Made by a program: the position numbers and the translations under genes. A DNA stretch of 64,000 nucleotides, from contig CM059432.1 of assembly GCA_030390025.1 (NCBI GenBank), positions 82,586,001 through 82,650,000 on the forward strand, in the 5' to 3' direction. Positions 15,456-39,982 of the stretch are shown piece by piece (the stretch's first letter is position 1; each line of letters begins with the position of its first letter). The stretch is from Squalus acanthias. Its lineage: Eukaryota. The notes under the pieces were generated by a model, which did not search any database, was not told the origin of the DNA, and saw only the letters and a program-made list of their open reading frames with translations.

Positions 15456-16252
15456 ACACATAGCTGACTCTTAGACAGCTGGTGGACCCCTAGACCGGAT
15501 GTTACTCCTCTGGCATAAGAAGAAAAAGGAAGATTTACTGGGGTAGTGCCTGCTATGCCCTTTGTGCTCCTGGACCATCCTTTCCTGCTCCCTTGTGAAA
15601 TACCCATCAGTGCCGGAAACTCCGCCGCACTATTCATTTCTGCCACTGATGTGTTGATACTTTGCAATCTTCACCCTATGAAACTTCATTTACTCCAGGT
15701 CTGGAGTAAACAAAATATTACTTTTTAATTTTATAGTGTAGCTTCAGAATGCTGCAAGGGTTCATCATCAATCAGGAAGAATAAATTCAATAAGAAAGGA
15801 AAGGTTTCTTCAGGGAAATATAAAAATGCAGAATAAAGTTAGGGAAAGAGAAGGAGAAAACACCTTCAAAACTGTTAGGGAGAGAAATTCGGTACCTTAG
15901 CACCTCCAGTTAGCGTCTGGTGGGGGCGCTAACGGGGTGCTGAGGCAATAGTGCCACGGCGAGGCGAATCCAGTGACGCAAACCAAATCTGGCACCCCCA
16001 TAGCGCCGCCGCTACGAGTTAGCGTCGGGGACTTCAGCGCCAGGAAGATCATGACATCAGTGAGCGTGCAACGCTCACTGGGTGCCCGATCTGCGAAATT
16101 GATTTTCGCCCCCTACCTTAGCGCCTTGCCCCGATAGTGACAGGGAGAGGAGACGTAAAGCAGTCAATAGCCGGCTCCAGGGGTGCTACTTAAAGGGATC
16201 ATGAGTAATGAATCGCAGCTCTCAGTTTGGTGCTGTTTCACTGCTTCCTTGT

Positions 16253-16619
16253 CAGAGGCCGGTGTCGGGAGCAACAGGAGAGAACAGTGAGTATTTAAAC
16301 TCACTTTTGCGGGCTTTTTTTTTTTTTTTTACACAGAGGCCGGTGTCGGGAGCAACAGGAGAGAACAGTGAGTATTTAAACACACTTTTGCGGGCTTTTT
16401 TACAGAGGCCGGTGTCGGGAGCAACAGGAGAGAACAGTGAGTATTTAAACTCACTTTTGCGGGCTTTTTTACACAGGCCAGTGTTGGGAGCAACAGGAGA
16501 GAACAGTGAGTATTTAAACTCACTTTCGCGGGCTTTTTTTTTTTTTTGTTACAGAGGCCGGTGTAAGGAGCATCAGGAGAGAACAGTGAGTATTTAAACT
16601 CACTTTCGCGGGCTTTTTT
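16253..16619 (+). repeat. Five tandem 69-81 bp monomers at the presumed CR1 5' end
   Basis: Units start at 16253, 16334, 16403, 16472, 16552: CAGAGGCCGGTGTCGGGAGCAACAGGAGAGAACAGTGAGTATTTAAACTCACTTTTGCGGGC(T)n. Confidence 0.95.
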
Positions 16620-16785
16620 CAGAGGCTTACCAATCTCGCAGACCGGCGGCGGTGTTCCAGAGCCACGTCACGATTCAAAAAGTGACGCGGGCAAGAGGAA
16701 GCAGCTGATTGGGTGAGTACAGCCAGGTGAATATTTATACTACTTTATAGTTTGACAGTTAAGGTTAATAGTTTATAAAGTCATA

Positions 16786-17678
16786 GGGGTAGAAATTAGG
16801 TCGCGCCCCATTTGGGGCGCAAATATCGTCTGGACGCAAATATTAGCGCCTGGCGCTAATTATCGGCACTGACTGGAAACTTCACTTTTACCGCCCCGGG
16901 AGGTGAGTGGAGCGCTAAAGCAGGCGCTGCACACCTGTCTTAAGGCGCAAAGGCCAAGGAGTGAGGCGCTACCTCAGAGCGCTGGCGAAGCTCATGTAAT
17001 GTCAGTCAGCAATGGAACACACACACAATGGCACGGGCCAGTTCTTAAAGGGGATGGTTAATCTTGCTTTCCATCCACATCCTTCTCATTGCAGCCTTGA
17101 ATCTCGGCCTGGAGAGACTTGCACATCAAATGTGCTGGAAAGAACAATGGAGAGTACCAGGCAAAGAGCTCAGAGTGCAGCTCCCACAGTCTCTGCTAAA
17201 TCGATACAAGGAATGGCAAATCAAAATGAACCTGCAAAGTGCTGCTCAGTACCCAAAACTCCTTCACACAACGTTGAATCTCTCCAGAAGTCTCTCCCTC
17301 TCTCTCTCAGAATGCGTAGTTCAAAAATGCCACCAACAATAAAAGACAGGAAGAGGCCCCCTTTAAATAGCGCCCCCCCCAGCCCCACAGCGATTGATAG
17401 CGTTCCAGTCTTCTGGTCGTTGGATGCGCCAGGCGGTAAGGCAGGGGGCGCCACTCAATTTCCGCTCCGGGGCGCCACAAGGGCGTTGCACCATGGAATG
17501 ACGTCACAATCTGCGCGCGCAGGTGGTCGCAGCGGTAAGTTTTAGCGCCGCCGCACAATGTCAAGTTAAGTTCCCGAGCGGCGCAAACATCGCTGCGCCC
17601 GGGCGTTAGCGGCTTTGCGCCCCATTAGCGCCCTCTTAAGGCGCTAATGGGAGGCGCAACCAACTGAATTTTTACCCC
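16786..17678. mobile_element. Harbinger MITE nested in the presumed CR1 5' UTR
   Basis: TIRs GGGGTAGAAATT / AATTTTTACCCC (11/12); left TIR identical to the outer element's right TIR; flanks ATA/TTA; many TAGCGCC/GGCGCTA motifs. Confidence 0.8.
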
Positions 17679-17821
17679 TTAATTTTTGTGGTTATAGTTT
17701 CTACGGTCTCTGTTGTGTAGCGGGGAGTGCGAGTAAACAAGGGCCCTTGAGTATTTCATTTAATTGTAGTGTAATTAGTGGTATTGATTTGATTTAATTT
17801 AAATTAATTAAAGGGTAAGTC

Positions 17822-18771
17822 ATGACAGCACAGCTCGGCCCTGTGGCATGCTCCTCCTGCGCTATGTGGGAAATCAGGGACACTTCCTGTGTCCCTGTTG
17901 ACCATGTGTGCAGGAAGTGTGTCGAGCTGCAGCTACTGGCAGACCGCATTGTGGCGCTGGAGCTGCAAATGGATACATACTGGAGCATTCGCGATGCTGA
18001 GGACATCGTGGATAGCACGTTTAATGAGTTGGTCACACCGCAGGTAAAGGTTGCACAGGCAGAAAGGGAATGGGTGACCACCAGGCAGAGTAGTAGGCGC
18101 AGGCAGGTAGTGCAGGGGTCCCCTGTGGCCATCCCCCTCTCAAACAGATATACCACTTTGGATATTGTTGAGGGTGATGGCTTATCGGGGGAAGGCAGCA
18201 GCAGCCAACTTCCTGGCACCATGGGTGGTTCTGCTGCACAGGACGGGAGGAAAAAGAGCAGGAGAGCTATAGAGATAGGGGATTCTATTATAAGGGGAAT
18301 AGATAGGCGTTTCTGCGGCCGCAAACGAGACTCCAGGATGGTATGTTGCCTCCCTGGTACAAAGGTGAAGGATGTCTCGGGGCGGCTGCAGGGCATTCTG
18401 GAGGGGGAGGGTGAACAGCCAGTTGTTGTGGTGCATATAGATACCAACGATATAGGTAAAAAATGGGATAAGGTCCTAAAAGCTGAATATAGGGAGTTAG
18501 GAGGTAAATTAAAAAATAGGACCTCAAAGGTAGTAATCTCAGGATTGCTACCAGTGCCACGTGCTAGTCAGAGTAGAAATAGAAGGATATTTCAGATGAA
18601 TACGTGGCTAGAGGAATGGTGCAAGGGGGAGGGATTCAAATTCCTGGGACATTGGAACCGGTTCTGGGGAGGTGGGACCAGTACAAACTGGACGGTTTGC
18701 ACCTGGGTGGGACCGGGACCGATGTCCTAGGGGGAGTGTTTGCTAATGCTGTCGGGGAGGGTTTAAACTAA
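17822..18771 (+). pseudogene. CR1 ORF1: N-terminal CxxC..CxxC, coiled coil, SGNH/GDSL esterase; frameshift near 18670
   Basis: CSSC..CRKC; IGDSIIR, CLPG, HIDTND blocks; D-G-L-H motif read in a shifted frame, ending at TAA 18769-18771. Confidence 0.9.
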
Positions 18772-18928
18772 AATGGCAGGGGGTTGGGAACCTGTGCAGG
18801 GAGAGAGAGGAAAGGAAAGCATGGATAGAAACAAAAGACAGGAAGGAGAAAAGCAAAAGTGGAAGGCAGAGAAATCAAGGGTGTAAATCAAACAGGGCTA
18901 CAGTAAATAATAATTCTAAAAGGACTAA

Positions 18929-21742
18929 GTGTTAAAAAAAACAAGCCTGAAGGCTTTGTGTCTTAATGCGAGGAGCATTCGTAATAAGGTGAATGAATTA
19001 GCTGCGCAAATAGATGTAAACGGATATGATATAATTGGGATTACAGAGACATGGCTCCAGGGTGACCAAGGCTGGGAATTCAACATCCAGGGGTATTCAA
19101 TATTCAGGAAGGACCCAGGCAAAAAGGAAAAGGAGGTGGGGTAGCATTGCTGGTTAAAGAGGAGATTAACACAATAGTGAGGAAGGATATTAGCTCTGAT
19201 GATGTGGAATCTGTATGGGTAGAGCTGAGAAATACCAAGGGGCAGAAAACGTTAGTGGGAGTTGTATACAGACCCCCAAACAGTAATGCTGAGGTTGGGG
19301 ATGGCATTAAACGGGAAATTAGAGATGCGTGCAATAAGGGCACAGCAGTTATCATGGGTGACTTTAATCTACATATAGATTGGGCTAACCAAATTAGTAA
19401 CAATACTGTGGAGGAGGAATTCCTAGAGTGTATACGGGATGGTTTCCTGGACCAATATGTCGAGGAACCAACTAGAGATCAGGCCATCTTAGACTGGGTA
19501 TTATGTAATGAGAAAGGATTAATTAGCAATCTTGTTGTGCGAGGCCCCTTGGGGAGGAGCGATCATAATATGATCGAATTCTTCATTACGATGGAGAGTG
19601 AAGTAGTTGACTCAGAGACTAGGGTCCTGAATTTAAATAAAGGAAACTACGATGGTATGAGGTGCGAGTTGGCTAGGATGGATTGGGGAGCGTTACTTAA
19701 AGGGTTGACGGTGGATAGGCAATGGCAAACATTTAAAGATCGCATGGATGAACTACAGAATTTGTTCATCCCTGTTTGGCATAAAAATAAAACAAAAAAG
19801 GTGACTCAATCGTGGCTAACAAGGGAAATTAGGGATAGCATAACATCCAAGGAGAGAACATATAAATTGGCCAGAAAAAGCAGCAAACCTGAGGATTGGG
19901 AGCAGTTTAGGATTCAGCAAAGGAGGACAAAGGGATTAATTAAGAGAGGGGAAATAGAATATGAGAGTAAGCTTTCAGGGAACATAAAAACTGACTGTAA
20001 AAGCTTCTATAGATATGTGAAGAGAAAAAGATTAGTGAAGTCAATCGTAGGTCCCTTGCAGTCAGAATCAGGGGAATTTATAATGGGGAACAAAGAAATG
20101 GCAGACCAATTAAATACATACTTTGGTTCTGTCTTCACAAAGGAGGACACAAATAACCTCCCAGAGATGTCGGGGAACATAGGGTCTCATGAGAGGGAGG
20201 AATTGAATGAAATCAGTATTTGTAGGGAAATGGTGCTAGGGAAATTGATGGGATTGAAGGCCGATAAATCCCCAGGGCCTGATAATCTACATCCTAGGGT
20301 ACTTAAGGAAGTGGCCCTTGAAATAGTAGATGCACTGCTGGTCATCTTCCAAAATTCTATAGACTCTGGAACAGTTCCCATGGATTGGAGGGTAGCTAAT
20401 GTAACCCCACTATTTAAAAAAGGTGGTCGAGAGAAAACCGGGAATTATAGACCGGTAAGCCTGACATCGGTAGTGGGGAAAATGCTAGAGTCCATCATAA
20501 AAGATGTAATAGCAGAGCACTTGGAAAACAGTGACAGGATTGGACAAAGTCAACATGGATTTACAAAAGGTAAATCATGCTTGACTAATCTACTGGAATT
20601 TTTTGAGGATGTAACTGGTAGAATAGATAAGGGAGAACCAGTGGATGTGGTATATTTGGACTTTCAGAAGGCTTTCGATAAGGTCCCGCATAAGAGATTA
20701 GCGTGCAAAGTTAAAGCACATGGGATTGGGGGTCAGGTACTGACTTGGATAGAGAACTGGTTGGCAGACAGGAAGCAAAGAGTTGGAATAAACGGGTCTT
20801 TTTCCGAGTGGCAGGCAGTGACTAGTGGGTTACCGCAGGAATCAGTGCTAGGACCCCAGCTATTCACAATATATATCAATGATCTAGATGAGGGAACTAG
20901 ATGTAATATCTCCAAGTTTGCAGACGACACGCTGGGTGAGCGTGTGTGCTGTGAGGAGGATGCAGAGAAACTCCAGTATGATTTGGACAGGTTGGGTGAT
21001 TGGACAGATGCATTATAATGTGGATAAATGCGAGGTTATCCACTTTGGTGGCAAAAACAGGAAGACAGATTATTATCTGAACGGCAATAGATTGGGAAAA
21101 GGGGAAGTGCAACGAGACCTGGGTATCCTTGTGCACCAGTCACTGAAGGTAAGCATGCAGGTGCAGCAGGCAGTTAAGAAGGCAAATGGTATGTTGGCCT
21201 TCATAACGAGAGGATTCGAGTACAGGAGCAAGGATGTCTTGCTGCAGTTGTACAGGGCCTTGGTGAGACCACACCTTGAGTATTGTGTGCAGTTTTGGTT
21301 GCCTTATCTGAGGAAGGATGTTCTTGCCATGGAGGGAGTGCAGTGAAGATTCACCAGACTGATACCTGGGATGGCAGGAATGACGTATGAAGAGAGATTG
21401 GGTCGATTAGGCTTATATTCGCTAGAGTTTTAAAGAATGAGAGGGGATCTCATTGAAACTTATAAAATTCTAACAGGACTAGACAGACTAGATGCAGGAA
21501 GGATGTTCCCGATGGTCGGGGAGTCCAGAACCAGGGGTCACAGTCTAAGGATAAGGGGTAAGCCATTTAGGACTGAGATGAAGAGGAATTTCTTCACCCA
21601 GAGAGTGGTGAACCTGTGGAATTCTCTACCACACAAGGCAGTTGAGGCCAATTCATTAAATATATTCAAGAAGGAGTTAGATATATTTCTTAAGGCTAAA
21701 GGGATCAAGGGATATGGGGAGAAAACAGGGACAGGGTACTGA
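18929..21742 (+). pseudogene. CR1 ORF2: APE endonuclease plus reverse transcriptase, with several frameshifts and stops
   Basis: CLNARSI, GITETW, GDFN, SDH; NYRPVSLTS, YLDFQKAFD, FADD; C-terminal LVRPHLEYC, FFTQRVVNLWN. Confidence 0.95.
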
Positions 21743-21960
21743 ATTTGGATGATCAGCCATGATCTCATTAAATGGTGGAACAGGCTTGAGGGGCCGAATG
21801 GCCTACTCCTGCTTCTATCTTCTATGTTTCTATGTTTGACATTGTGCAACAGTTTAATTCAGTCATTTAAAGGTTGTTTAGTCTTCGGAGTGTTGTGGCT
21901 ACTAAAAATTAGTTACATTTATTCTCACAACATATAAAAGTGCTACACTTGGTTACATTA

Positions 21961-23161
21961 ATGGGGGCTGTACTGGCAGTCGACCTCGCCCTCCAGGATC
22001 TACGGCAGAGGGAGCGGAGGCAGCGAGAAAGATTGGAACATGTGACCAGAGTGAGGAGGAGGGTCATGAGGGCTCTCAACAGGAGTCCTTACCCTCCAAG
22101 GGAATTCCGACAGCACTTCTCCTACCTTCAATTCAGCGAGAAGCAGTGTATTAGAAGGCTCCGCTTCACCAAGTAGGTGGTCACAGAACTCTGCCATGTT
22201 CTGCAACCAGACCTCCAGCCTGAGATTAGGGTGACCACAGCTCTCTCAGTGGCAGTCAAGGTCACCGTCGCCCTCAATGTCTTCGCCAGCGGATTTTTTC
22301 ACTCTGCAACGGGAGATATAGGTAACATCTTGCAGTTCGCCATCCATCGCTGCATCCGGGAGGTCACAGAGGCTCTCTACAGTAGGAGAAGGGATTACAT
22401 TTCCTTCCCCATCACCAGAGAGAAGCAGGAAGAGCATGCACGTGGCTTTGCCAGGATAGCGGGATTCCCCATGGTGCAGGGCGCCATTTACTGCACACAC
22501 GTGACTTTGCGGGCACCGCATAACAATCCTGAGATCTTCCGTAACCGCAAAGACTACCACTCACTTAATGTGCAGTTGGTGTGCGACCACACACAGCAAA
22601 TTCTCAATGTCAATGCCCGCTATCCTGGCAGCAGCCACGATGCCTTCATCCTGTGCCAGACCGGTGTGCCAGCACTCTTCCAGCCACCACATCAAGCTTG
22701 CGGCTGGCTTGTCAGAGACAAGGGCTATCCGCTGTCCACCTGGCTCATGACTCCCCTCCACAACCCCAACACTCCTGCCCAGCACTCATATAATGAGAGC
22801 CATGCTGCCACCAGGAACATCATTGTGCAGACCATTGGGGTGCTCAAGCAACGGTTCCGATGCCTTGACCACTCGGGAGAGGCCCTCCAGTACTCGGCTG
22901 AGCGGGTGTCCCATTTCGATGTGGTGTGGCTGCATGCTCCACAATCTGGCCATCATGAGTGCCCAGCCTTTACCAGCAGGGATTGCAGGACCACCTCAGG
23001 AGGAGGAAGAGGAGGATGAAGAGGGGCAGGAAGAAGAGGAGCAAGAGGAAGACGAGAAGGACAAAAACGAGAAGAAACAGGAGTTATGGAGGAGGCAGTC
23101 ACTCAATCGGCCTTCCGGAAGGGCGGTCCGTGACCGCCTCATCAGACTGTGGTTCCAATGA
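21961..23161 (+). pseudogene. Harbinger DDE transposase (HARBI1-like), inactivated
   Basis: LRFTK*, GFPMVQGAIYCTHV, NRKDYHSLNVQ, YPGSSHDAFIL, RDKGY, YNESHAATRNIIVQTIGVLKQRF; in-frame TAG 22174-22176; frameshift ~22927; acidic tail. Confidence 0.95.
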
Positions 23162-23326
23162 ATTAAACCCCAGATCCCCGTTGCTCACCACATCCCCATC
23201 ATTCCATCCCTGTCGCAGACCACATCACAGCGCAAAGCTGAAATTAGACACACCACAAAATAATCCAAACTGAACTAATAAATTTATCAATAATCAGTTA
23301 ACACATATTTGCAACAATAATATTAA

Positions 23327-25189
23327 CTATTCACCCTTATTGCCTCTCGTTACTGTGCCTTTGCCTACTCTAGTGCTCCTACGAAGTGTTGGCCCAGTGG
23401 CTGCAGCAGAGCTGGTGGAAGGCTGCTGAGTGTCCGTGCGGGAGACTTCAGATGGCCTTGCAGGACGCCCTTGACCAGCTCTGGGCCTGGAAGGCCCGGC
23501 TGTAGACTGCACCACCTCAACATGGGCGGCAGCAGTCTGGGCTGGTTGGATGACGGGCAGCGACAAGGGCAATGGCGGAGTGGCAGTGGTGGGAGCAGGA
23601 ATGCTGTCATCCTGAGAGAGGGCAGCAGGTACCTGCTCCACTGACCCACTGGCAATTCCCTGGGGCAGCACCTCAGCATCCCTAGCAATCTGCTGCAGCA
23701 TAAATTGCTGGCCTGCTGCGCCACCGTGAAAGCCCCGGTCGACGGTGGTAGACCCAGCCATGATGGCAGCAGGCAGAGCTTGCGTGGCATCAAACTGAGA
23801 CTGCGTGAGAGCAGTCTGAGATTGAATGGCACCAACCATAGACTGCATTACAGCACTAAGACGTTGCGTCACTTCTGCCTTGCTACAATGGAAGCTGCCA
23901 GATCGCCCATCACACGCGGCATCAAGTCTGGGTCACCACGGTCTCTCTGGGAGTCTACCATCCTTTGCAGACTGGAAATTTTGGGCTCCATGGTGTACGC
24001 AGAGCTTTGTGCAATGTTGGAGGCGGACTCCTCCATACTTCTTACCATTGCCGTCAGGCTCTCGGGTACCTTTGCCATTGCACCTATGATCTCCGTGTGC
24101 ATGACCATCACTCTTCTTCTAGAGGCCTCCCCATAGAGGTCCTCATCTGAGTCCTGTGCTGCAGAACTCGCCCTCCGGGGAGCTGGCTCCTGAGCTACCC
24201 TTTCCCTCTGGCCTTGCTGCAGCCCGCTTGTTCCCGGTGCCTCACGCTGTGCAGATCCCGCTACCATACTAGCCTCTAAAGAACACGTAGTGCCAGTATC
24301 TGAGCTGGTGCCTGCGGGTGAGATATGCAGTGATGTGGTGTGTTCTTTCTCCTCCTCTTCTCCCGCCTCGCTCTCAACGGTGCCCTCAGGTACAGGCTGC
24401 TCAGGTGCTTGCTCATTACCTGAAAGCATAAAGGTACAAGAGTCGGGTTAAGGTGAGGGGAGGGGAGCAGGAAGGGAGAAAGGCATGCATACAGCATGAT
24501 TAGCTGGAAAGTGCGAAAGGCTTGTGGGGTGAGGGGGAAGTGGGATGAACATACTGTTGTTGTCCCTAAGGGGGTCAAGGTCGCCAGTGGCCACGGCGCC
24601 CACCACCTGGCGCCCAATAATCTCCAGCATTCTATTTTCCAGCGCAGATTGTGGTTGGGTGTCGGCTTGTCCCCCGCCTGTGCGCTCCTGCTCCCTCCTG
24701 TTGTGAGCCACCTTGGCCTGCAAGAGAAAGGAAAGTGTGTGTGTGAGTGTGGAGCAATGTGTTTGGGTGATGTGCCTGCCATAGTTGAATAGCTGTCATT
24801 GTGTGCAAGGTGTGAGATGTGGGTGTGAGTGTTGGTAGGTAGAGATTGTTGGTGGGTGAGTGCTGGGGGTGTGGTGCTTTGGCCAATGTGGCAGACTGTG
24901 GTTCAGACGGTGGTATGTAGCATTTGTAGAGGCATTGACTCACCCTGACCACCTGAGTGAGGTCGTTAAATTTCTCCCTGCACTGTGTGTGGTTCCTGGA
25001 GATGACAGTGCTGCCCGAGACATGCTGGGCAACCTCCCTCCACATGGCACGGAAGACTTGTGGTGAGGGCCTCCTGCCACTTGCCGGGTACAGCACCGCC
25101 CCCCGTCTCCCCACAGCGGACACCAACTCCTCCAATGCTTGGTCTGAAAATCTGCGGGCTCTCTCCCTGGGGCGTGGATCTGCCATCAT
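23327..25189 (-). pseudogene. Harbinger Myb/SANT-like DNA-binding protein, three exons (25189-24944, 24717-24555, 24419-23327), one frameshift ~23880
   Basis: RFSDQALEELV..MWREVA..RNHTQCREKFNDL; phase-compatible GTGAGT/TTGCAG and GTATGT/TTTCAG introns; AKVAHNRREQERTGGG after the Myb domain. Confidence 0.88.
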
Positions 25190-25257
25190 GACACCTGCTT
25201 GAGTCGTCCGGCTCCTTGGGCTTGGGCTTGGCCTGCTCCTGCTTGCTGACACTGGTT

Positions 25258-25387
25258 CACAGCCAGCAATGCTGAGAATGAGGTTCTGCAGCATCAATGA
25301 ACCTCCCCTTTAAGAACTGGAAAGAGCCTGTGACAATGATGACTTGCGATTAGATTGCACCTGATATTGGTTAGCGCTTTGAGTGTA
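25258..25387 (-). promoter_or_regulatory. 130-bp Harbinger block upstream of the Myb gene (putative promoter), copy 1 of 3
   Basis: On the - strand: GCGCTAA, CCAAT, TTCTTAAAGGGG, TCATTC; ends 69 bp before the Myb ATG; promoter role is inferred. Confidence 0.55.
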
Positions 25388-25455
25388 CTCTTTTTTGATT
25401 GGGTGGTGAAACAAATAAACTGTAACTAATATAGCTTTAAATAAAACTTAACAAC

Positions 25456-28400
25456 TTAAATAAAAATTGTGTTGGCCGGGGTGATGATGCACTCCAGTCC
25501 CCGCGGCGCCCACCGGTCGCGGAAGGCCTTGAGCGTGCCGGCGGACACCGCGTGCTCCATCTCCAGGGCCACCCGGGCGCAAACGTGGCCACGGAAGAGA
25601 GGCAGGCAGTCGGGCTGAACGACCCCCTTGACCGCCCGCTGCCTGGACCAGTTAATGGCCACTTTGGCCAGGCCCAGGAGAAGCCCGCTCCCCTCCGCAC
25701 CAGGTGACCAAAGATCAGGAGCGTGGGACTGAAGTGCATCCAAAAATCGAGGAGCAGCCCCTTCAAATAATGGAAGAGGGGCTGCAACATCTCACATTCC
25801 ATATATACGTGGAACATGGACTCCTCCAGGCCGCAGAAAAGGCAGGCGGCCTGGGAGTCCGTGAACCTACTTAAAACCATATTGCACGGGACTACTCTGT
25901 GCAACACCCTCCAGGCCAAGTCCCCAATAGAACAAGGGAGGACTCCCGCGTAGAGAGCCCTCCATTGGGGACCTCCGCCTCCACCGGACGGCAAGATGAC
26001 ACGCCAAGGCATGTCCGAACGGCAGACGAAGATGGCAAAGTGGAAAGTGTACAGGAGCAGCCCGTACAGGAAATGCCTCCGTGCAGAACTAAAAGGCACG
26101 GAGGGCATATCCCCGAGACAGCTCAAGTTGTGAGGCGCCGGTTCCCGAGAGGGGTTTCGGGGCCGGGCGCCGATGAGGAATTCCGTCCGAACGGGGGTCA
26201 GTTCCAACGGGATCGCCCCACGTGCTTGAGCCTCCTCGATACACCTAGTCAGGGCCCAGTGCCACTTTCAGCGACTCGATGGCTTTGGCTGTGCCAGCTC
26301 CACCGGCGCCATCCAGCCCGCTCCTCCGCCATCGAGCAGGTCCCCGATTCTAGTCACCTTGCCAGGCACGGCCCTGCCCTCCGCCAGCCACCCGAACCCG
26401 CTGTCGTGGAGGTGCGGATTCCTGAGCAGCGGCTCCCGAAGGACAGCCGCCACTCCTGACGGGGGAGAACTCTGTCTGCAGGCGACCTTGTTCCAGACCC
26501 ATAGCAGTTCCTGGTAGAAGACAGGCAGCTCCTGCAAGCAGGCCCGGGTACCACCCAGTTTCACAAACAGGGGCTGCGTGTCGTAATTGAGGCCGTGCAG
26601 CTGGCAGAAGAAATACATCGCCAGCGCACACCCTCTGGGAGGATCCTCGCTGTACAGGTATCTCTGCAGGGTCTGAAGATGGAAAGTCGCAGCCTGGGTG
26701 CGAAGGCACACCAGCGCCTGACCGCCCTCCCTAAGCGGGAGACTCAGAACTGTGGCAGAGACCCAGTGCTTCCTTTTGTCCCAGAAGAAGTCGATGAGCT
26801 TCTTCTGTATCTTGGCGACAAACGCAGGGGGAAGGATCAAAGTGACCAACTGGTACCACAACATGGCAGCCACCAGCTGGTTTATGGCCAGCGCTCGACC
26901 CCTGTAGGACACCACTCAGAGCAGTCCTGTCCATGACTTGCCCCTCGAGAGCTGGACGAGGGCGCCAGTCAGCTCCGCCAGGCTTAGCCGAGCGTCCAAT
27001 TTTTCAGCACCCTCTGGGCCGACCTTCGGCAGATCCTCCCACAAAACTCTGTGCGCATCCTCACTGGATGGATCTGGAGAGAAGAGAGCCCCGTAAAAGG
27101 CCCGGGCCTCCGCGCTGATGCCCAACGGATCCGAGACCAGAGATCCATCGTCGGCCAGCAGCCCCAAGAGCTGCTTACGGACTCCGTCTTTTTTCCAGCG
27201 AGCGGTGACTTTGGCCTCCAGCTCTCGCCAGTTCGCTGGCCAGGCGTCCTCAGCCAGGCTAAGGTAGACTCCCAAGTAGAGGAGGTGCGTTGTGCTCCAG
27301 GTGAAAGGTCTGAGCTCCTCCGGCAGGGAGTCCACCCGCCACTGACCCACCAGGAGTCCGGAATATTTCTCCCAATTGATCTTGGCGGAGGATGCGTCCG
27401 AATAAATCTGCTGGCATTCTCGCATCCTCCGCAAGTCGACGGGATCCGTGACCATGAGGAGCACGTCATCGGCGTAAGCCGAGAGGACGACCTGAGTCCT
27501 GTCAACTTCTTCCGCAAGAGGCGCAGGAAAGGCTCCATGCAGACGGCATATAACTGACCGGACTTGGGGCATCTCTGACGTACCCCTTTCCCAAAGTGAA
27601 GGGGCGCCGTCAAAGACCCGTTAACTTTAATCAGACACTCCGCGGCGGTGTACAGAAGTCGGATCTGGGCGAAGAAATGCGTCCCGAACCCGAATGCGTG
27701 CAGAGGCCCGAAGAGATACTCGTGATCCACCCTGTCAAACGCCTTCTCCTGATTCAGGGAAAGGAAGGCGACCGACAGACCAGCCCTCTGGGAATGGTGG
27801 ACCAGATCCCGGATCAGATGGATATTATCGTGGATGGTCCGGCCCGGGACCGTGTAGGACTGGTCGGGGTGGATCATGTGGGCCAGCACGGTGCCAAGGC
27901 GGGCAGACATGGCCCTGGCAAAGATTTTGTAATCCATGCTGAGGAGGGAGACTGGGCGCCAGTTCTTAAGAAGGCGGAGATCGCCCTTCTTGGGCAGCAG
28001 GACAACGACCGTCCTGCGCCAAGAGAGGGGCATCTCCACGTTCGCCAGACTTTCCCCCAGGACCCGCGCGTAGTCACCCCCCAAGACGTCCCAGAACGCC
28101 CTGTGGAACTCCACGGTCAGCCCGTCCAGCCCCAGGGACTTGCCCCTTGAGAGCTGGCCGAGGGCGCCGGTCAGCTCCGCCAAGCTTAGCGGAGCGTCCA
28201 ATTTCTCGGCGCCCTCCGGGCCGACCTTCAGCAGCTCCTCCTACAAAACTCTGCGCGCATCCTCGCTGGACGGATCCGGAGAGAATAGAGCCCCGTAATA
28301 GGCCCGGGCGTCCGCGCTGATCCCCTCCGGATCCGAGACCAGAGATCCGTCGTCGGCCAGCAGCCCCAAGAGCTGCTTACGGACCCCCCGTCTTTTTTCC

Positions 28401-29487
28401 AGCGAGTAGAAGAAGGGGGAGCCGCGGTCCAGGTCCCGGAGGAACTGGATCCGCGACCTCACGTACGCGCCTCGGGACCCGACCAGCTGCAGGTCCTTCA
28501 GCGCGCCCTTCTTCTCTTCGTACACCTTCCGCAGGGCCGGGTCTTCGACAACTTGACCGAGACGGGACTCCAGGTCGAGCACTTCTTTCTCCAATCGCCC
28601 GACCCGGGCCTCCCGCCTCTTGGTCGACCCCTTCGCGTACTCCTGACAGAAGACGCGGACGTGAGCCTTGCCCACGTCCCACCATAGCCTCAAGGAGGGG
28701 AAGCCCCCCTGCTTCCTTCTCCAGTCGGCCCAGAACCGACGAAACGAATCCTGGAACCGCACGTCCTCCAGCAGCAGGTTATTGAAATGCCAGTACACGG
28801 ACCCCCCCACCGCGCAGCGGAGCAAGCTCCGCCCACATCAGGTGGTGGTCCGTGCACGGCACCGGCCGCATGGAAGCCGCCGGAACGCAGGAGACGTACG
28901 CCCGGGAAAATGTAAAGGCGGTCGATTCTGGACCTTCCTCCTCCAGACCTCACGCTAGTGAAGGCGCTGCAGTCGGGATGGAGATTTCGCCAGACGTCCA
29001 CCAAGTCAAAGGACCCGACCAAGTCCCTCAACTTCTCCATCACCACCGGGCTTCGCGGGGGACCCTAATGGTCCCTCGCCTCGAGGGTGCAGTTAAAATC
29101 CCCGAGGATGATGCACTCGCCGACGTCGATGGAGCCCAGAAGAGCGGACACTTCTTCAAAGAAGTGCACTAAATGGAGCAGCACACCCCCCAGGCGAACA
29201 GTGACCTGGAGCAAGCGGCCCGACACATGCTCCTTGACCCTCAAGATCTCCGGCTGAAAATGTGGGGCCAGCAAGATGGCCACCCCGCAGGAATTGTTGG
29301 AGAGGTGACTCATGCTGACCCCTCCTTGCCACTCCAGGAGCCACGTGGCCTCGTCTCCCGGAACGGTGTGGGTTTCTTGCAGGAAGCACACCGCATACTT
29401 CCCGTCCTGAAGGACCGAGAAGTTATTAAATCTACGGCGCGCCTCCCTGCTGCTGTTGGTGTTGAAGCTGGCTATGGTTATCTTCAT
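25456..29487 (-). pseudogene. Tx1 ORF2 (copy A): APE endonuclease, RT, C-terminal CxxC..H..C; many frameshifts, deletions and one templated insertion
   Basis: MKITIASFN..FLQETH..GDFN; NWRPVSLL; AYADD; CLFCGLEESMFHVYMEC. Confidence 0.92.
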
Positions 29488-29512
29488 ATCAGAAGCATAG
29501 TGCAACCTCTAC

Positions 29513-31670
29513 CTAAACCTGACGGGGGGAGGGAGCGCAGTCACGTGACAACCACCACTCCCTCAGCAGCCCAGTGAGGAACGTTCTGAGCCGACGCAGC
29601 TCGAGCCGGCTCACGCCCTTGTCCGCGCCCATGATTTTAATGGCGGCGTGGACGGACCCGACGAGCATTGCCAGCTCCGACCACCTGTCGAGGGCCAGCC
29701 GGATTTTATTGTGACGGTCCAGGCGCTTGGCAATAAAATCCCGGAGTTCCGCAACGGGGATGAGGGGAGAGTCGGTGAGGGGCACGAGGGCATCCACCGC
29801 CTCACTGGCGATGGAGTCCAAATCGTCCCCAGTGCCCTCCACCAATCCCCGTCCTCCTCCAGGAGGTCGTCACCAGCGGCCGACCCGTCCGTCACACGGG
29901 GTGCAGCGAATGGCTCGGCCGCACCGGCCGGCCCTGCCTCTGTCCCGATCCCACCCCCAGGATCAACGGCAGAGGAGTCCTCCCTAGGCTCCTCCAGGGG
30001 CGCCGGGCCGGGAGGCAGCGGCGGTTTGGGGTCCCTCCGCCTCAGGCGCCGGGGCGTCCGGAGAAACCGGGGAGAAAACAATTCCCAGTTCCTCCAACAC
30101 GCCCGGCGCCAACGTCAGAGACAGAGTCATGGGGCCTTCCCCTTCCCTGCCACCAGCCACTGACCCAGCGGACTGGGTATTTTGATTGTATTCCTCGACC
30201 AGGTCGAGCAGTCCCTGGGAGAAATCTGGATTACAATGGGCGAGTTCAGCTTCTTCGGCCTCGCCCGCCCCAGTCCCCAGGACGCCCGACCCGGCGAGGA
30301 GTTCGGTTCCATTGATATATTTATATTATTATTTTCCGCGGGTTGTTCCGCGGCCCCCCCCCCCACCCGGGCAGGGTCTCTTCCCCATCCCCGGGAGGCA
30401 CAGGCTGGACAGACACATCTGTCTCACCCTCCCGAGGGACAGGCGACCCCTGCCGAATACTCGTGATGGTGGCGGCGGGGGGGGGGGGCGCAGCTCCCGC
30501 GGCGTGCGACGACTCCCCTTGTACAGAGGGACCTTCCTCCTCGCGGTCCTCCTCCTCTTCCAGGGAGTTGCGTCTTCTTTTTAGTCTGGAGGGACGCGGA
30601 GGGTGGGAGACCTCCATGTCTGCCGAGGCCTCCGCCTCCGCTCCCTCCTGTCGAGTGGGTTTCTTGGGCCCCTCGGGCCCGAGCCCAGCCGCAGGTCTTG
30701 ATTTTTCTGCCTTGGCAGTTGCGGTCACAGGCTCGGGCACGAGGCCCTCCCCACGCTCATATGCCGCCACTAACTCCGCAAGGAGCGCGGGTGTAAGTTC
30801 CAATAATTCGGTTTGCTCAACGAGGGGACCCGCCTTAAGGTGTTTTGTCTTCCGCCGTGCCTTCCTTCTGCCCGGACGCTCTCCCCCCCACCACCCCCCC
30901 GCCCCCGCCAGAGGCCGTGATGGCGTTGGCCTCCGACATCGACCGTGCATCCGTTGGCTTTGACGCGCGGACAGTATCAGGGGGAGGAGCGGCGGCGGCA
31001 CCAGCCCCGGCTGCACTTGATATTCTGGTGGCCTTGGAGGCGGGGCAGTTTTTCCTGATATGCCTCACCTCCTTACAGGCGTGGCACCGCACACCGTCCG
31101 ACGTCCAGAAGACGCGGTAGGCAGTCCCCTCGTGGCGCACCATAAAAGCACCGTCGGTGTCCTCCTCCCGCGCCAGCTGGACAAAAAGCTGGCGCCGGAA
31201 GGAGAAGATGTGCCGGAGGCTGGCTTCCTGGAAGCCGAGCGGGATGGGTGTAATCCCCGACCTCACCTCCCCCAGTTGACGTAGGTGGGGGAGGAGGAGC
31301 TCACCAGGAACAAAGGGCGGGACGTTGGAAATTACTATCCTTTGCGCGGTGGCCTCGAGAGGGTCCACCGGCAGGAAGGTCCCGCCCACGGTGAGCCCCT
31401 TTTCGATGGCCAGGGACACCGCCCGCTCCAACCCCAGTAAGAACACAGCCTTCCCGTACATTTTAGAGGCGGCGACGATGGCTGAAGGGCTGACAACCCC
31501 AGCCATGGCTTTAACACACGCCTCTATCGTCATGTTGGAGTGAGTGTAGCTCTTGACCCCATTTTTTTTGTAATTAACCTGAATGGTGACGGGGCAGCGG
31601 GAGCAGCTGTGGCTGCCACACCCGCGTACGTCCTCGCTGACCCCGCCACCGGCGAAGATGGGGTCGCCAT
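29513..31670 (-). pseudogene. Tx1 ORF1 (copy A): RRM-like region, CCHC zinc knuckle, low-complexity C-terminus; frameshifted
   Basis: IVAASKMYGKAVF, ISNVPPF, SFRRQ, CHACKEVRHIRKNC. Confidence 0.9.
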
Positions 31671-31890
31671 AAGTGGATTGTTCTTTCTAAGGGCTACACT
31701 CACCCCAAGTCACAGGCCTGAAGATGTTGGTTATGGCCTTGGTAGTTTTTTTTTCTCTCCCTTGAGCAGAGGGAGTTGTTAAATTGAAGGCACACCTCTC
31801 CCCTTATTGATTGAATTAGGAGAGGGGCCTTCTCCCCTCTGCTCAATAAGTAATTAATAAAATAAATTGAGGTGCCTCTCAGAGAGAGGC

Positions 31891-31940
<50 letters not shown>

Positions 31941-32630
31941 AAGGAGGGAGGCCGCAAGGGCGTGGTCACCACTCAGGATGGTGCATGGGTGGGTGTTGGC
32001 AGGGGTGCACTCTCCAATGTAAATGAAAGTCTCTGTTGGTGGTCTTCTGGTGGGGGGAGAAGATGTCTTCACCTGGGAAAGCTGGAGATACCCAGGCTCA
32101 GTCCTGCACCAGGTCTTAACGATGTTCAATATGATGTAATTAAAGTGTGGACTTCACCTAGGCAGCTCCAGCTGTCCCAGGTTTAGGCAATGAGAAGGGG
32201 TGTTTATTAGTGGTGTGTGTGGCCTAGTTTTTTTTACAAGAGCTACACACACACACCCCTTGGTGTTCCAGCCTTCTTTTCTTCTTTCCTCCCCCCACCT
32301 ACAATACAAAGTCTCTGGGAGAGTGCACCAGAAATAACACCCACCTGTAGATGTTCAAAATGATGCTGTTCCCTCCTTCCAAACAGTTGATGTTTCTTAC
32401 TGTTGGACTGTTGTGTTCTCCCCTCTCTTCTAAAATGGAGGCCAATTGGGGAGGCAGTGTTGGAAAGGCCTCTCCTCTGATGTTCTTCTTATGGGCCTTC
32501 TTTTTCTTTCTCCTCTCCTGTCCTCTCTCTCCAGGCACCCCAGCTGTTGTTGTTGTAGTGGTAGTGGTGGTGGTCTGCAATCTGGTCTCCTCCTCTTCCT
32601 GGTCAAAGAGACCTCCACTCCACTCTGCTT

Positions 32631-32757
32631 CACTGCCAGCATTGCTGAGAATGAGGTCCTGCAGCATCGATGAACCTCCCCTTTAAGAACTGGAAAGAGC
32701 CTGTGGCAATGACTTGCGATTAGACTGCACCTGATATTGGTTAGCGCTTTGAGTGTA
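32631..32757 (-). repeat. Copy 2 of the Harbinger block (127 bp), between the two Tx1 elements
   Basis: Direct repeat of 25258-25387 and 39853-39982 with a 3-bp deletion. Confidence 0.95.
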
Positions 32758-32824
32758 CTCTTTTTGATTGGGTACTAAACCAAATAACTGTAAATCAATA
32801 AAACTTTAAATAAACCTTAACAAA

Positions 32825-35800
32825 TTAAATTAAAATTTGGCAGCCCGGGGTGACGATGCACTCCAGTCCCCGCGGCGCCCACCGGTCGCGGAAAAACTCA
32901 AGCGTGCCGGTGGACACCGCGTGTTCCATCTCCAGGGCCACCCGGGCGCGAACATGGCCGCGGAAGACAGGCAGGCAATCGGGCCGAACGATCCCCTCGA
33001 CCGCCCGCTGCCTGGACCAATTAATGGCTTTCTTGGCCAGGCCCAGGAGCAGTCCTACAAGGAGGTCCTCCGACCTGCCCGCTCCCCTACGCACCGGGTG
33101 ACCAAAGATCAGGAGTGTGGGGCTAAAGTGCAACCAAAAATCGAGGAGCAGCCCCTTCAAATAATGAAAGAGGGGCTGCAACCTCTCACACTCAGTATAA
33201 ACGTGAAAGACGGACTCCTCCAGGCCGCAAAAATGGCAAGCAGCCTGGGAGTCCGTAAACCTATTTAAAACCCTATTGCACGGGACTGCTCCGTGCAACA
33301 CCCTCCAGGCCAAGTCCCCAATAGAACAAGGGAAGACTCCCGCGTAGAGAGCCCTCCATTGGGGACCTTCGCCTCCGCCGGACAGCAGGATGGCACGCCA
33401 AGGCGTGTCCGGACGGCAGACGAAGATGGCAAAGTGGAGAGTGTGCAGGAGCAGCCCATACAGGAAACGCCTCCGTGCGGAATGAAAGGGCACGGAGGGC
33501 ATTTCTCCGAGAAAACTCAAGTGGTCAGACGGCGGCTCCCGAGGGAGGATTCGGGGCCGGGCGCCGATGAGGAATTCCGTCCGAACGGAGGTCAGCTCGG
33601 ACGGGATCGCCCCACGTGCTTGAGCCTCCTCGATACACCTAGTGGAGACGGGGCCCAGTGCCACTTTTAGCGACTCGATGGCTTTGACCGTGAGTCGGAC
33701 GTTGACCCAGGACAGGCGCCTCGCCAGCTCCTCCAGCGCCATCCAGCCCGATCCTCCGCCATCGAGCAGGTACCCGACTCTAGTCACCTTACCGGGCACA
33801 GCCCTGCCCTCCGCCAGCTACCCGAACCCGTGGGCGTGGAGGTGCGGATTCCTGAGCAGCGGCTCCCGAAGGACAGTCGTCACTCCTGATGGGGGAGAAC
33901 TGCGCCTGGAGGCGACGCTGTTCCAAACCCATAGCAGTTCCTGGTAGAAGACAGGCAGCTCCCGCAAGCAGGCACGTGTGCCGCCCACTCTCACAAACAG
34001 GAGCTGCGTGTCGTAATTGAGGCCGTGCAGCTGGCGGAAGAAATACGTCGCCAGCGCACGCCATCTAGGAGGATTCTCCACGTACAGGTATCTCTGCAGC
34101 GTCTGAAGACAGAAAGTCGCCGCCTGGGTGCGAAGGCACACCAGCGCCTGACCGCCCTCCCTAAGCGGGAGACTCAGAACCGCGGCAGAGACCCAGTGCT
34201 TCCTTTTGTCCCAGAAGAGGTCGACGAGTTTCTTCTGCATCTTGGCGACAAACGCAGGGGAAGAGATCAAAGTGACCAACCGGTACCACAACATGGCGGC
34301 CACCAGCTGGTTTATGACCAGCGATCGACCCCTGTAGGACAGCACTCGGAGCAGCCCTGTCCAGCGCCCTAGGCGAGCGGTGACTTTGGCCTCCAGCTCT
34401 TGCCAGTTCGCCGGCCAGGCGTCCTCGGCGGGGCTGAGGTAGACCCCCAAGTAGAGGAGTTGTGTTATGCTCCAGGCGAAGGGCCTGAACTCCTCCGGCA
34501 GGGAGTCCACCCGCCACGGGCCCACCAGGAGTCCAGAACATTTCTCCCAGTTGATCTTAGCGGAGGATGCGTCCGAGTAAATCTGCTGGCATTCTCGCAT
34601 CCTCCGCAAGTCGACGGGATCCGTGACTGTGAGGAGCACGTCATCGGCGTAAGCCGAGAGGACGACCTCCACGCCCGGCCCTTGCGGAGCCAGTCCCATC
34701 AACCTCTTCCGCAAGAGGCGCAGGAAAGGCTCCATGCAAACGGCGTATAACTGACCGGACATGGGGCATCCCTGACGCACCCCCCTCCTGAAGCGAAGGG
34801 GCACCGTCAAAGACCCGTTAACTTTAATCAGACACTCCGCGGCAACGTACAGAAGTCGGATCCGGGCAACGAAATGCGTCCCGAACCCGAAAGCGCGCCG
34901 AGTCCCGAAAAGATACTCGTGATCCACCCAGTCGAACGCCTTCTCCTGATCCAGGGAAAGGAAGGCGACCGACAGACCAGCCCTCTGGGAATGGTGGACC
35001 AGGTCCCGGACCAGGTGGATGTTGTCGTGGATGCTCCGGCCCGGGACCGTGTAGGACTGGTCGGGGTGGATCATGTGGGCCAGCACGGTGCCAAGGCGAG
35101 CAGACATAGCCCTGGCGAAAATTTTGTAGTCCGTGCTGAGGAGGGAGACCGGGTGCCAGTTCTTAAGTAGGCGGAGATTGCCCTTCTTAGGCAGCAGGAC
35201 AATGACCGCCCTGCGCCAAGAGAGGGGCATCTCCCCGGTCGCCAGACTTTCCCCCAGGACCCGCGCGTAGTCGCCCCCCAAGACGTCCCAGAACGCCCTG
35301 TGGAACTCCATGGTCAGCCCGTCCAGCCCCGGGGACTTGCCCCTCGAGAGCTGGCGCAGGGCGCCGGTCAGCTCCGCCAGGCTTAGCGGAGCTTCCAATT
35401 TCTCGGCGCCCTCCGGGCCAACCTTCGGCAGGTCCTCCCACGAAACACTGCGCGCATCTTCGCTGGATGGATCTGGAGAGAACAGAGCCCCGTAATAGGC
35501 CCGGGCGTCCGCGCTGATCCCCTCCGGATCCGAGACCAGAGATCCGTCATCGGCCAGCAGCCCCAAGAGCTGCTTACGGACCCCCCGTCTTTTTTCCAGC
35601 GAGTAGAAGAAGGGGGAGCCGCGGTCCAGGTCTCGCAGGAACTGGATCCGCGACCTCACGTACGCGCCTCGGGACCCGACCAGCTGCAGGTCCTTCAGCG
35701 CGCCCTTCTTCTCTTCGTACACCTTCCGCAGGGCCGGGTCCTCGACGACTTGACCGAGACGGGACTCCAGGTCGAGCACTTCTTTCTCCAATCGCCCGAC

Positions 35801-36725
35801 CCGGGCCTCCCGCCTCTTGGTCGACCCCTTCGCGTACTCCTGACAGAAGACGCGGACGTGAGCCTTGCCCACGTCCCACCATAGCCTCAAGGAGGGGAAG
35901 CCCCCCCGCTTCCTTCTCCAGTCGGCCCAGAACCGGCGAAACGAATCCTGGAACCGCACATCCTCCAGCAGCAGGTTGTTAAAATGCCAGTACGCGGACC
36001 CCCCCCCGCGCGCGCAGTGGAGCGAGCTCCGCCCACACCAGGTGGTGGTCCGTACACGGCACCGGCCGCATGGAAGCCGCCGGAACACAGGAGACGTACG
36101 CCCGGGAAATGTAAAGGCGGTCGATTCTGGACCTTCCTCCTCCAGACCTCACGCTAGTGAAGGCGCTGCAGTCGGGATGGAGATTTCGCCAGACGTCCAC
36201 CAAGTCGAAGGACCCGACCAGGTCCCTCAACTTCTCCATCACCGCTGGGCTTCGCGGGGGACCCTAACGGTCCCTCGCCTCGAGGGTGCAGTTAAAATCC
36301 CCCCTGAGGATGATGCACTCGCCGGCGTCGATGGTGCCCAGAAGAGCGGACACTTCTCCAAAGAAGCGCACTTGCTGCGCACCGGTCTGGGGGGCGTTCA
36401 CGTCCACTAAATGGAGCGGCACGCCCCCCAGGCGAACAGTGACCTGGAGCAAGCAGCCCGACACATGCTCCTTGACCCTCAAGATCTCCGGCTGAAAATG
36501 TGGGGCCAGCAAGATGGCCACCCCGCAGGAATTGTTGGAGAGGTGACTCATGCTGACCCCTACTTGCCACTCCAGGAGCCACGTGGCCTCGTCTCCCGGA
36601 ACGGTGTGGGTTTCTTGCAGGAAGCACACTGCATACTTCCTGTCCCGAAGGACCGAGAAGTTATTGAATCTACGGCGCGCCTCCCTGCTGCCGTTGATGT
36701 TGAGGCTGGCTATGGTTATCTTCAT
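32825..36725 (-). pseudogene. Tx1 ORF2 (copy B): APE endonuclease, RT, zinc finger; few frameshifts (~36265-36050, ~33810)
   Basis: MKITIASLNINGSR, LQETH, GDFN, RIDR, TDHH; SLDQEKAFD, GVRQGCPMS, AYADD, YLG; CHFCGLEESVFHVYTEC. Confidence 0.95.
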
Positions 36726-36750
36726 GTCAGAAGCGTAGTGCAACCTCTAC

Positions 36751-38870: not shown

Positions 38871-39852
38871 AAGTAGGTTGGTCTTTAAAGGGCTACACTC
38901 ACCCCAAGTCACAGGCCCGAAGATGGTGATGGCCTTGGTAGTTTTTTTCCCCCTTGAGCAGAGGGAGCTGTTTAAATTGAAGGCACACCTCTCCCTTTAT
39001 TTGAATTAATTAGGAGAGGGGCCTTCTCCCCTCTGCTCAATGGGTACTTAATAAAATAGATTGAGGTGCCTCTTAGAGAGAGAGGCAGAGAGAGACAAGA
39101 GACAAAGAGAGAGAGAGAGAGGGGGTGGGAAGGAGGGAAGCCGCAAGGGCAGGGTCGCCGCTCAGGATGGTGGGTGGGTGGGTGTTGGCAGGGGTGCACT
39201 CTCCGATGTAAAATAAAGTCTTTGTTGGTGGTCTTCTGGTGGGGGGAGAAGATGTCTTCACCTGGGAAGCTGGAGATGCCCAGGCTCAGTCCTGCACCAG
39301 GTCTTAACGATGCCCAATAAGATGTAATTAAATTGGGGACTTCACCTAGGCAGCTCCAGCTGTCCCAGGTCAGGCAATGGGAAGGGGTGTTTATTAGTGG
39401 TGTGTGTGGCCTAGTTTTTTACAAGAATCACACTCACACACACACACACCCCTTGATGTTCCGGCCTTCTTCTTTTCCTCTTTCCTCCCCCCACCTACAA
39501 TACAAAGTCTCTGGGAGAGTGCACCAGAAATAACACCCACCTGTAGATGTTGAAGTTGTTTCTTCCTTCCTCCTTCCACACAGATGATGTTGGTTATTGT
39601 GATGTTTTTCTCCCCTCTCTCCCTCTCCTAAAATGGAGGCCAATTTGGGAGGCAGTGTTGGAAAGGCCTCCCTTCTGATGATCTTGTTCTTGGCCTTCCT
39701 TTTCTTTCTCCTCTCCTGTCCTCTCTCTCCTGGCACCTCAGTTGTAGTTGTTGTTTGTAGTGGTGGTCTGCAGTCTGGTTCCTCCTCTTCCTGGTCACAG
39801 AGACCACCACTCGCCTTCCTCTCCCTTTCCACTCTCCTGGATGAGGCAGCTG

Positions 39853-39982
39853 CACAGCCAGCATTGCTGAGAATGAGGTCCTGCAGCATCAATGAACCTC
39901 CCCTTTAAGAACTGGAAAGAGCCTGTGGCAATGATGACTTGCGATTAGACTGCACCTGATATTGGTTAGCGCTTTGAGTGTA
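39853..39982 (-). repeat. Copy 3 of the Harbinger block (130 bp), continuous with the Harbinger right end
   Basis: 126/130 identical to 25258-25387; continues into GCACCACT... rather than into a Tx1 3' end. Confidence 0.95.

Follow-up and report, generated by a model that had tools for sequence, protein, structure and literature searches.

A 130-bp Harbinger block with promoter-like content precedes two full-length Tx1 elements in Squalus acanthias and may be rebuilt from the target

The window analyzed here, a 64,000-nucleotide stretch of the Squalus acanthias genome (GCA_030390025.1, contig CM059432.1, positions 82,586,001 to 82,650,000), contains a PIF/Harbinger transposon that hosts two full-length Tx1-type LINEs and three copies of a block of approximately 130 bp (Table 1). 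The host element carries the hallmarks of PIF/Harbinger transposons, namely a DDE transposase (PF13359), a Myb/SANT gene (PF13873, with E=3e-5 for a profile match on the open reading frame at 24632-25309), terminal inverted repeats and a 3-bp TTA/TAA duplication. The best relative of its transposase is a sawshark protein, which is 77% identical. The left end at 15878 probably belongs to this Harbinger copy, as judged from the matching termini and TTA flanks found across a nested MITE and a LINE.

The nested Harbinger-type MITE (16786-17678) and the LINE, which has a GDSL-domain ORF1 (~17700-21839), separate the left end of the transposon from its transposase. Just downstream of a CTTAAAGGG motif in the transposase leader, five tandem units of 69-81 bp (16235-16619) contain T-tracts that vary, together with the inverted pair GTGAGT...ACTCAC. 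A second Harbinger family that bears a Myb gene is present as two copies (11090-12129 and 58605-59700) that are 82% alike, in which the spacing from CCAAT to CTTAAAGGG is the same and a TGACGTCA motif lies between the two.

Both LINEs carry an ORF1 and an ORF2 with APE and RT domains. In Tx1 B, ORF2 encodes an N-terminal APE endonuclease, an RT and a zf-RVT domain (PF03372 on 36264-36746, PF00078 on 33818-36148), and a zinc knuckle is recognized in ORF1 (PF00098, E=1.2e-4 on 37980-38996). The ORF2 product of Tx1 B is 55% identical to YTX2_XENLA, the Xenopus Tx1L protein, over 93% of the query, and both elements appear to group with the Tx1 clade, a placement made by similarity to Tx1L. Tx1 B is the better preserved of the two: its ORF2 has two stops and one frame break, whereas that of Tx1 A is interrupted by four stops and a number of frame breaks and also holds a 268-bp insert.

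Table 1. Features of the Harbinger-Tx1 locus, in coordinates of the window.
Feature	Position	Strand	Remarks
Host PIF/Harbinger, whole with nested insertions	15878..40146	.	Flanked by TTA; terminal sequences GGGAGAGAAATTC / GGGGTAGAAATTC
Harbinger transposase gene, broken (DDE_Tnp_4)	21961..23163	+	Start and end read from the sequence
Harbinger Myb/SANT gene, spliced, ends approximate	23330..25190	-	Downstream of block copy 1
Block copy 1	25258..25387	-	Myb side; CCAAT, TATA-like CTTAAAGGG, Inr-like TCATTC; four private substitutions
Tx1 A, full length, more decayed	25388..32628	-	3' end A-run and GAG abuts block +1
Block copy 2	32631..32757	-	Between Tx1 B 3' end and Tx1 A 5' UTR; 3-bp deletion
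First 8-11 nt of block, all that is left before two 5'-truncated Tx1 copies	32747..32757	-	Joints in sequencing runs
Tx1 B, full length	32758..39852	-	~985-nt CpG-poor 5' UTR; ORF1 (zf-CCHC) from ~38867; ORF2 36725-32846
Block copy 3	39853..39982	-	Between Harbinger end and Tx1 B 5' UTR; 164-294 bp inside terminus; no private change
Harbinger right end, upstream of putative first-nick site 39982/39983	39983..40146	-	Sequence and run contigs

An earlier note on this DNA had reported three copies of the block, one directly upstream of each Tx1 element and one upstream of the Myb gene. Comparisons within the window bear this out. The copies are 95-98% alike, copy 3 matching copy 1 with 96.9% identity over 130 nt (E=2e-59) and copy 2 with 96.2% (E=3e-57), and there is no fourth full copy in the window, where the best remaining match spans 25 nt. 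Read along the minus strand, the Harbinger terminus and 164 bp of Harbinger sequence are followed by block 3 with Tx1 B, then by block 2 with Tx1 A, and finally by block 1 and the Myb reading frame.

The start edge of the block is the identical base in all three copies: the A-run and GAG that close both Tx1 elements are followed immediately by TACACTC, so that both 3' ends (2 of 2) stop at block position +1. The far edge lies at +130 for Tx1 B and at +132 for Tx1 A (+136 if one mismatch is allowed), the match of copy 2 to the Myb side running 2 nt beyond the block to 32629. The full-length copies are thus surrounded by duplications of 130 and 132 bp instead of the 10-20 bp that are usual for APE LINEs.

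Four alleles had been described as shared by copies 2 and 3 and absent from copy 1, and these are real: copy 1 alone differs at +33, +55, +103 and +119. Copy 2 additionally has private changes that the earlier note lacked, a deletion of +46-48 and changes at +92 and +127, and copy 3 has none. The resulting pattern is a star, with four, three and zero private changes, and it does not discriminate between the two models offered earlier, a very long target duplication or a block captured by the Tx1 as its own 5' end, since both yield identical copies 2 and 3. The proposal that Tx1 B inserted after Tx1 A is upheld in part, in that the alleles speak weakly against B having come first (copies 1 and 2 share nothing against copy 3), but they do not help to choose between the models. 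The greater decay of A and the allele pattern fix the order of insertion only weakly, because the layout comes out the same with either order.

The block is Harbinger sequence with a promoter-like architecture, as had been suggested. On the minus strand of copy 3, GCGCTAA lies at +11, CCAAT at +18, CTTAAAGGG at +74 and TCATTC at +107, the last of these 33 nt after the TATA-like CTTAAAGGG. We take these to be CCAAT, TATA and Inr elements. A CCAAT box and a TATA-like motif at conserved spacing, as expected of a Pol II core promoter, are present in the block: CCAAT lies 56 bp upstream of the TATA-like motif (53 bp in copy 2) and 58-59 bp upstream in the second Myb-bearing Harbinger family, which has no blastn similarity to the block. 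The pattern [CT]TTAAAGGG occurs 11 times in the window versus approximately one expected occurrence. Eight of these sites are subterminal in Harbinger elements or MITEs (the three blocks, the transposase leader, where the site is 311 bp from the Harbinger left end, both MITE ends and the Myb leaders of the second family), and the other three lie elsewhere. No CCAAT is found within 120 bp of the motif at the transposase and MITE sites.

On the basis of these motifs, the block is predicted to be the core promoter of the Harbinger Myb gene. An in-frame ATG at +94 was rejected as evidence of a coding role, as it precedes the predicted transcription start. The Tx1 5' UTRs are CpG poor (observed/expected 0.05 and 0.13, compared with 0.85 in ORF2), giving no hint that the elements possess a CpG-island promoter. 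A search of 38800-40300 against Rfam returned three matches, all well under threshold (E 0.24-0.5), although an undescribed ribozyme could escape such a search.

Tx1 A and Tx1 B were taken to be separate insertions, and their sequences bear this out. Of 6901 sites aligned between them, 625 (9%) are different, with a dN/dS of 0.39 over 1018 codons. At 29 sites where nearly all run contigs depart from B, collected from 40 of 1390 variant rows listed, A has the population base in 20 cases, the base of B in seven and a gap in two. Purifying selection has acted during the divergence of the pair and most private changes of B are missing from A, so that one is not a local tandem copy of the other. 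Divergence is patchy, from 1-4% between 28321-28838 and 35518-36038 to 15-23% in parts of ORF1, which indicates that Tx1 lineages have recombined.

Against this background the upstream blocks are unusually alike. Copies 2 and 3 differ at 2 of 127 positions, whereas the adjoining 5' UTRs differ at 107 of 976 (~11%; Fisher P=2e-4), and the blocks also stand out from the 9% divergence of the whole elements (P=1.3e-3). Every 127-nt window of the two 5' UTRs has at least five differences; over the whole mosaic elements, 480 of 6775 such windows (7%) are as alike as the blocks. An inherited copy under no selection should drift, as has the target copy inherited by earwig R2, in which 3 of 22 positions have changed according to the available text of PMC3774820. 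The near identity of copies 2 and 3 thus supports the earlier suggestion that the upstream blocks derive from the target and favors renewal from it over simple inheritance, although inherited promoter copies under selection might likewise have stayed alike.

Contigs from four public sequencing runs were compared with positions 32450-40350. Runs X1 and X2 represent organism A, with X1 possibly being the assembly's own sample, run X6 represents organism B, and run X16 was guessed to be RNA. The rows listed cover 15 of the 366 joints, 12 of the 79 rows of letters lying between joined parts, and 24 of the 3961 loose ends. Contigs from X1, X2 and X6 cross the Harbinger end into the same flank with 0, 8 and 9 differences, respectively. 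This junction (40085-40350) is thus common to organisms A and B, and the Harbinger insertion at this locus may predate their split.

Two of the joints listed link the interior of a Tx1 to the block. The joint 33804->32747 (X6, organism B) has a depth of 259, three letters between its parts, 41 letters on its short side and 11 nt of the block, and the joint 32938->32750 (X2, organism A) has a depth of 415, six letters between and 8 nt of the block. Read in the sense of the element, each leaves a Tx1 3' end, crosses the opening 11 or 8 nt of the block and then 3 or 6 extra letters, and enters a truncated Tx1, which starts 1047 nt (11-nt joint) or 181 nt (8-nt joint) from its own 3' end. Both joints resemble insertions of 5'-truncated copies that used the same nick and made a short duplication. 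Among the joints listed (15 of 366), none runs from inside a Tx1 to the block's far edge, and the chance that two random deletion ends would both fall within the first 11 of 130 nt is ~0.007.

The first model of the earlier note was a duplication of ~130 bp upon insertion, and the note had asked whether 5'-truncated copies share it. As a trait of all insertions such a duplication is not supported. At the two truncated block junctions among the rows listed the long duplication is absent and 8 and 11 nt are kept, which makes a fixed stagger of 130 bp, as in the rotifer element R9, unlikely. This evidence consists of two short contigs among the rows listed; both could conceivably be later deletions, and 130-bp cases could occur among the other joints.

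Other junctions concern the target itself. Both 3' ends in the window and both array joints from the runs lie at the same base of a candidate target site. The base before the nick, at 39983, is private to this locus, since A is read there in 87-92% of DNA depth; this position is present among the 40 of 1390 variant rows listed, in which the interior of block 3 does not appear, a weak hint that copy 3 carries the majority alleles. In 53 X2 contigs, whose letters resemble the Myb side of block 1, the junction from block to Myb shows up as a loose end. A joint across the junction of Tx1 3' end and 5' UTR in organism B (32531->32845, depth 95) suggests that Tx1 arrays exist elsewhere. Given one X16 contig in which a Tx1-like 3' end is followed by other flank sequence, targeting may not be absolute. 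In each of the four runs, summed contig depth, which is not copy number, is greater at the 3' end of Tx1 than at its 5' UTR (262-416k versus 47-49k in X1), a hint that most Tx1 copies are truncated. Block-to-element depth ratios were rejected as a means of choosing between models.

We see an even chance that the target serves to rebuild the upstream block, through a cDNA jump guided by homology and possible for complete copies only. The starting point is the observed position of both Tx1 3' junctions, exactly at block +1 and 164 bp inside the Harbinger end. The APE endonuclease would nick the bottom strand at +1 and prime reverse transcription. Transcription of a full-length copy is predicted to start at ~+105 to +110, the RNA opening with ~20-25 nt of host sequence. 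The 3' end of the cDNA could then anneal to the matching stretch of the target, which lies 105-130 nt downstream of the nick, displace the bottom strand and copy the target back to the nick, and a cut of the top strand near +130 would leave the order block, element, block. A 5'-truncated cDNA, without this homology, would instead end in an ordinary short duplication, as the 8-11 nt and 3-6 extra letters at the two truncated junctions suggest. Each complete copy is predicted to regain the promoter that its RNA lacks, which is the logic of an LTR without the LTR, and the Myb gene would retain its own block copy. The target would also be renewed, allowing arrays to grow. In our reading, a remark made in passing in the earlier note, on second-strand priming by 5' homology, is the core of this mechanism.

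Rebuilding from the target is favored because it explains together the constant 3' junction, the short truncated junctions, the target-like upstream blocks and a start inside the block. Its full-length evidence comprises two copies at one locus and its start site within the block is predicted, and we judge that it could as easily prove wrong as right. In the accessible parts of the R2 literature, annealing of cDNA to the target accounts for uniform 5' junctions (PMC3774820) and truncated cDNAs are unable to anneal (PMC13486585), and for duplicating LINEs a model exists in which the DNA lying between two cuts is displaced by a template jump (PMC6895275). The homology used in R2 annealing is upstream of the nick, and a second nick is needed close by (PMC13486585); invasion 105-130 nt downstream of a nick has no direct precedent in the accessible text of the cited papers. 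More generally, we consider it possible, with somewhat less than even probability, that a vertebrate APE-type LINE family without a promoter of its own nicks just upstream of a host transposon promoter and, by means of a few bases at its RNA 5' end, rebuilds this promoter before every full-length insertion, truncated copies receiving a short duplication without the promoter. Such a strategy is possibly shared by shark Tx1 families.

Less likely in our estimate, although a serious rival, is the second model of the earlier note, in which the duplication made by the LINE is only 8-11 bp and the RNA starts at or before the block and carries it as its 5' end. The source of such an RNA would be the Harbinger end or read-through from an upstream array member, comparable to earwig R2, which propagates a 22-bp copy of its downstream 28S target (PMC3774820, available text). 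An element-borne block would account just as well for truncated copies having short duplications and would suit the four alleles common to copies 2 and 3 against copy 1, and target-derived 5' extensions have been described for SINEU-2B as well (PMC4494074, in the accessible portion). However, the drift of the earwig copy contrasts with copies 2 and 3, which differ at 2 of 127 positions beside 5' UTRs that are 11% different. A promoter with a start near +107 would also leave most of the block outside the RNA, and if all of it were inside, drift would be expected. Moreover, the far edges are unequal, at +132 for A and +130 for B. Another candidate, in which the block is the element's own 3' end and the nick is at +130, was rejected, as the truncated copies at the two joints described above follow 8-11 nt and not the whole block.

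We regard as quite improbable a top-strand cut made approximately 130 bp downstream every time, with the short junctions being later deletions or rare off-pathway events. The similar block lengths of two independent insertions (130 and 132) and the way upstream blocks track the target are what such a cut would produce, R9 makes a 126-bp duplication (PMC6895275, PMC13486585, as far as the available text goes), and the joints listed are 15 of 366. However, both interior-to-block joints among those listed, from two organisms, fall at +8 and +11 and none at +130, and both have the extra letters that are typical where LINE 5' ends are joined. The general range for APE LINEs is 10-20 bp (PMC6895275, accessible text). 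A fixed cut also predicts one length, which full-length copies of ancestral-type R1 and truncated ones indeed share (PMC2718515, accessible text), and the pattern here differs. Finally, a local accident, meaning one rare long duplication followed by tandem duplication, unequal crossover or gene conversion and thus no family trait, is highly improbable: sporadic long duplications exist (one of 25 ZfL2-2 insertions has 1228 bp, according to the available part of PMC2666801), parts of A are almost the same as in B and the evidence comes from one locus, but A and B have diverged under purifying selection with A mostly free of B's private changes, crossover between loci would still require an upstream block for each element, and the organism B joint 32531->32845 (depth 95) suggests arrays elsewhere.

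Several known systems share parts of this arrangement. One is Tx1-9_AMi of alligator, a Tx1-clade LINE with a preference for a subterminal Harbinger site ~300 bp from the 5' ends (PMC4494074); at the present locus the Harbinger terminus lies 294 bp from the 5' junction and 164 bp from the putative nick. The accessible portion of that paper, from which the comparison is made by description, gives neither a duplication length nor a promoter role, and its figure S4 may already show Tx1-9_AMi junctions, which would bear on novelty. R9 of the rotifer Adineta vaga (PMC6895275, PMC13486585, PMC3636483) is likewise a site-specific LINE with a duplication of more than 100 bp (126 bp) downstream of the first nick. 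It differs, as far as these sources describe it, in belonging to the R2 clade, in its rDNA target and in its distant staggered cut. In place of the R2-clade restriction-like endonuclease and rDNA target of the R9 type, an APE domain and a Harbinger target are found here, and, with regard to a single long duplication length, two full-length copies have a long one and two truncated junctions among the rows listed have a short one.

R2 resembles the favored mechanism in having host sequence at the RNA 5' end and uniform junctions in full-length copies only (PMC3774820, PMC13486585). In the available text, however, its homology is upstream of the nick, at most 36 nt long and set by a ribozyme, whereas that proposed here is 105-130 nt downstream and set by a Pol II start. 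Transcription of Drosophila TART starts inside a 5' repeat, and a template jump has been proposed to rebuild the upstream sequence (PMC1636488, accessible part); the second copy in TART is in its own 3' UTR, whereas the donor here would be target DNA. R1 arrays and SINEU-3 tandems also grow head to tail into a regenerated duplication (PMC2718515, PMC4494074), but their spacers are 14-16 bp, with no promoter reported in the accessible portions of these papers, unlike the ~130-bp block.

The type element of the clade, Tx1L of Xenopus laevis, has the 55% identical ORF2 and also inserts into a DNA transposon, although its target is the piggyBac-type Tx1D and not a Harbinger. The Tx1L duplication is short, about 23 bp. 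In the literature covered, which excludes most subscription papers and Repbase entries, no Tx1 or other APE LINE was found in which a host promoter is duplicated by full-length copies.

Precedents exist for all the ingredients, among them Tx1-9_AMi, R9, R2 annealing and TART; they extend to the targeting of Harbinger elements, to long duplications, to annealing at the 5' end and to the growth of arrays. New, if the pattern holds genome-wide, would be the signature of two lengths and the promoter content of the duplication. The attachment of the LINE 5' end and second-strand synthesis are still called poorly understood (PMC6895275), and whether other elements share the second-nick mechanism of R2 is named as an open question (PMC13486585), in the text accessible for each. 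If full-length copies indeed have ~130 bp and truncated copies ~10 bp, a genome assembly could test homology-guided 5' attachment directly. Rebuilding of the block would then represent a new solution by which a LINE overcomes the loss of an upstream promoter and spares the host gene, an LTR-like regeneration of a promoter that uses target DNA.

Searches in other collections returned distant relatives of the elements. Exact patterns from the block gave no matches, either with 22 nt in metagenome_contigs or with 18 nt in viral_contigs. Protein-based scans yielded 91 loci of distant Tx1/L1-like elements with 27-45% best-segment identity, none of which matches the block, the Harbinger end, the Tx1 ends, the Myb gene or the transposase. 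Among them, loci L082-L091 are on contigs filed as bacterial MAGs, where RT genes of Tx1/L1-like type are interspersed with long tandem repeats, which presumably represent snRNA, tRNA or 5S gene arrays. These contigs are probably eukaryotic contamination.

Additional variation was observed among Tx1 lineages. The extra 268-bp ORF2 segment inside Tx1 A (26935..27202, minus strand) is ~90% identical to the corresponding segments of both A and B, whereas these two are 94% alike, which indicates that it came from a third lineage. We propose that it arose by a template jump or is a nested fragment. Run X1 contains a joint, 35981->34277, that goes back in a similar way. The 5' tips also vary among lineages, and at 39812 four contigs of run X1 carry a third variant of the Tx1 5' end, with a (GCA)n run ahead of the shared UTR.
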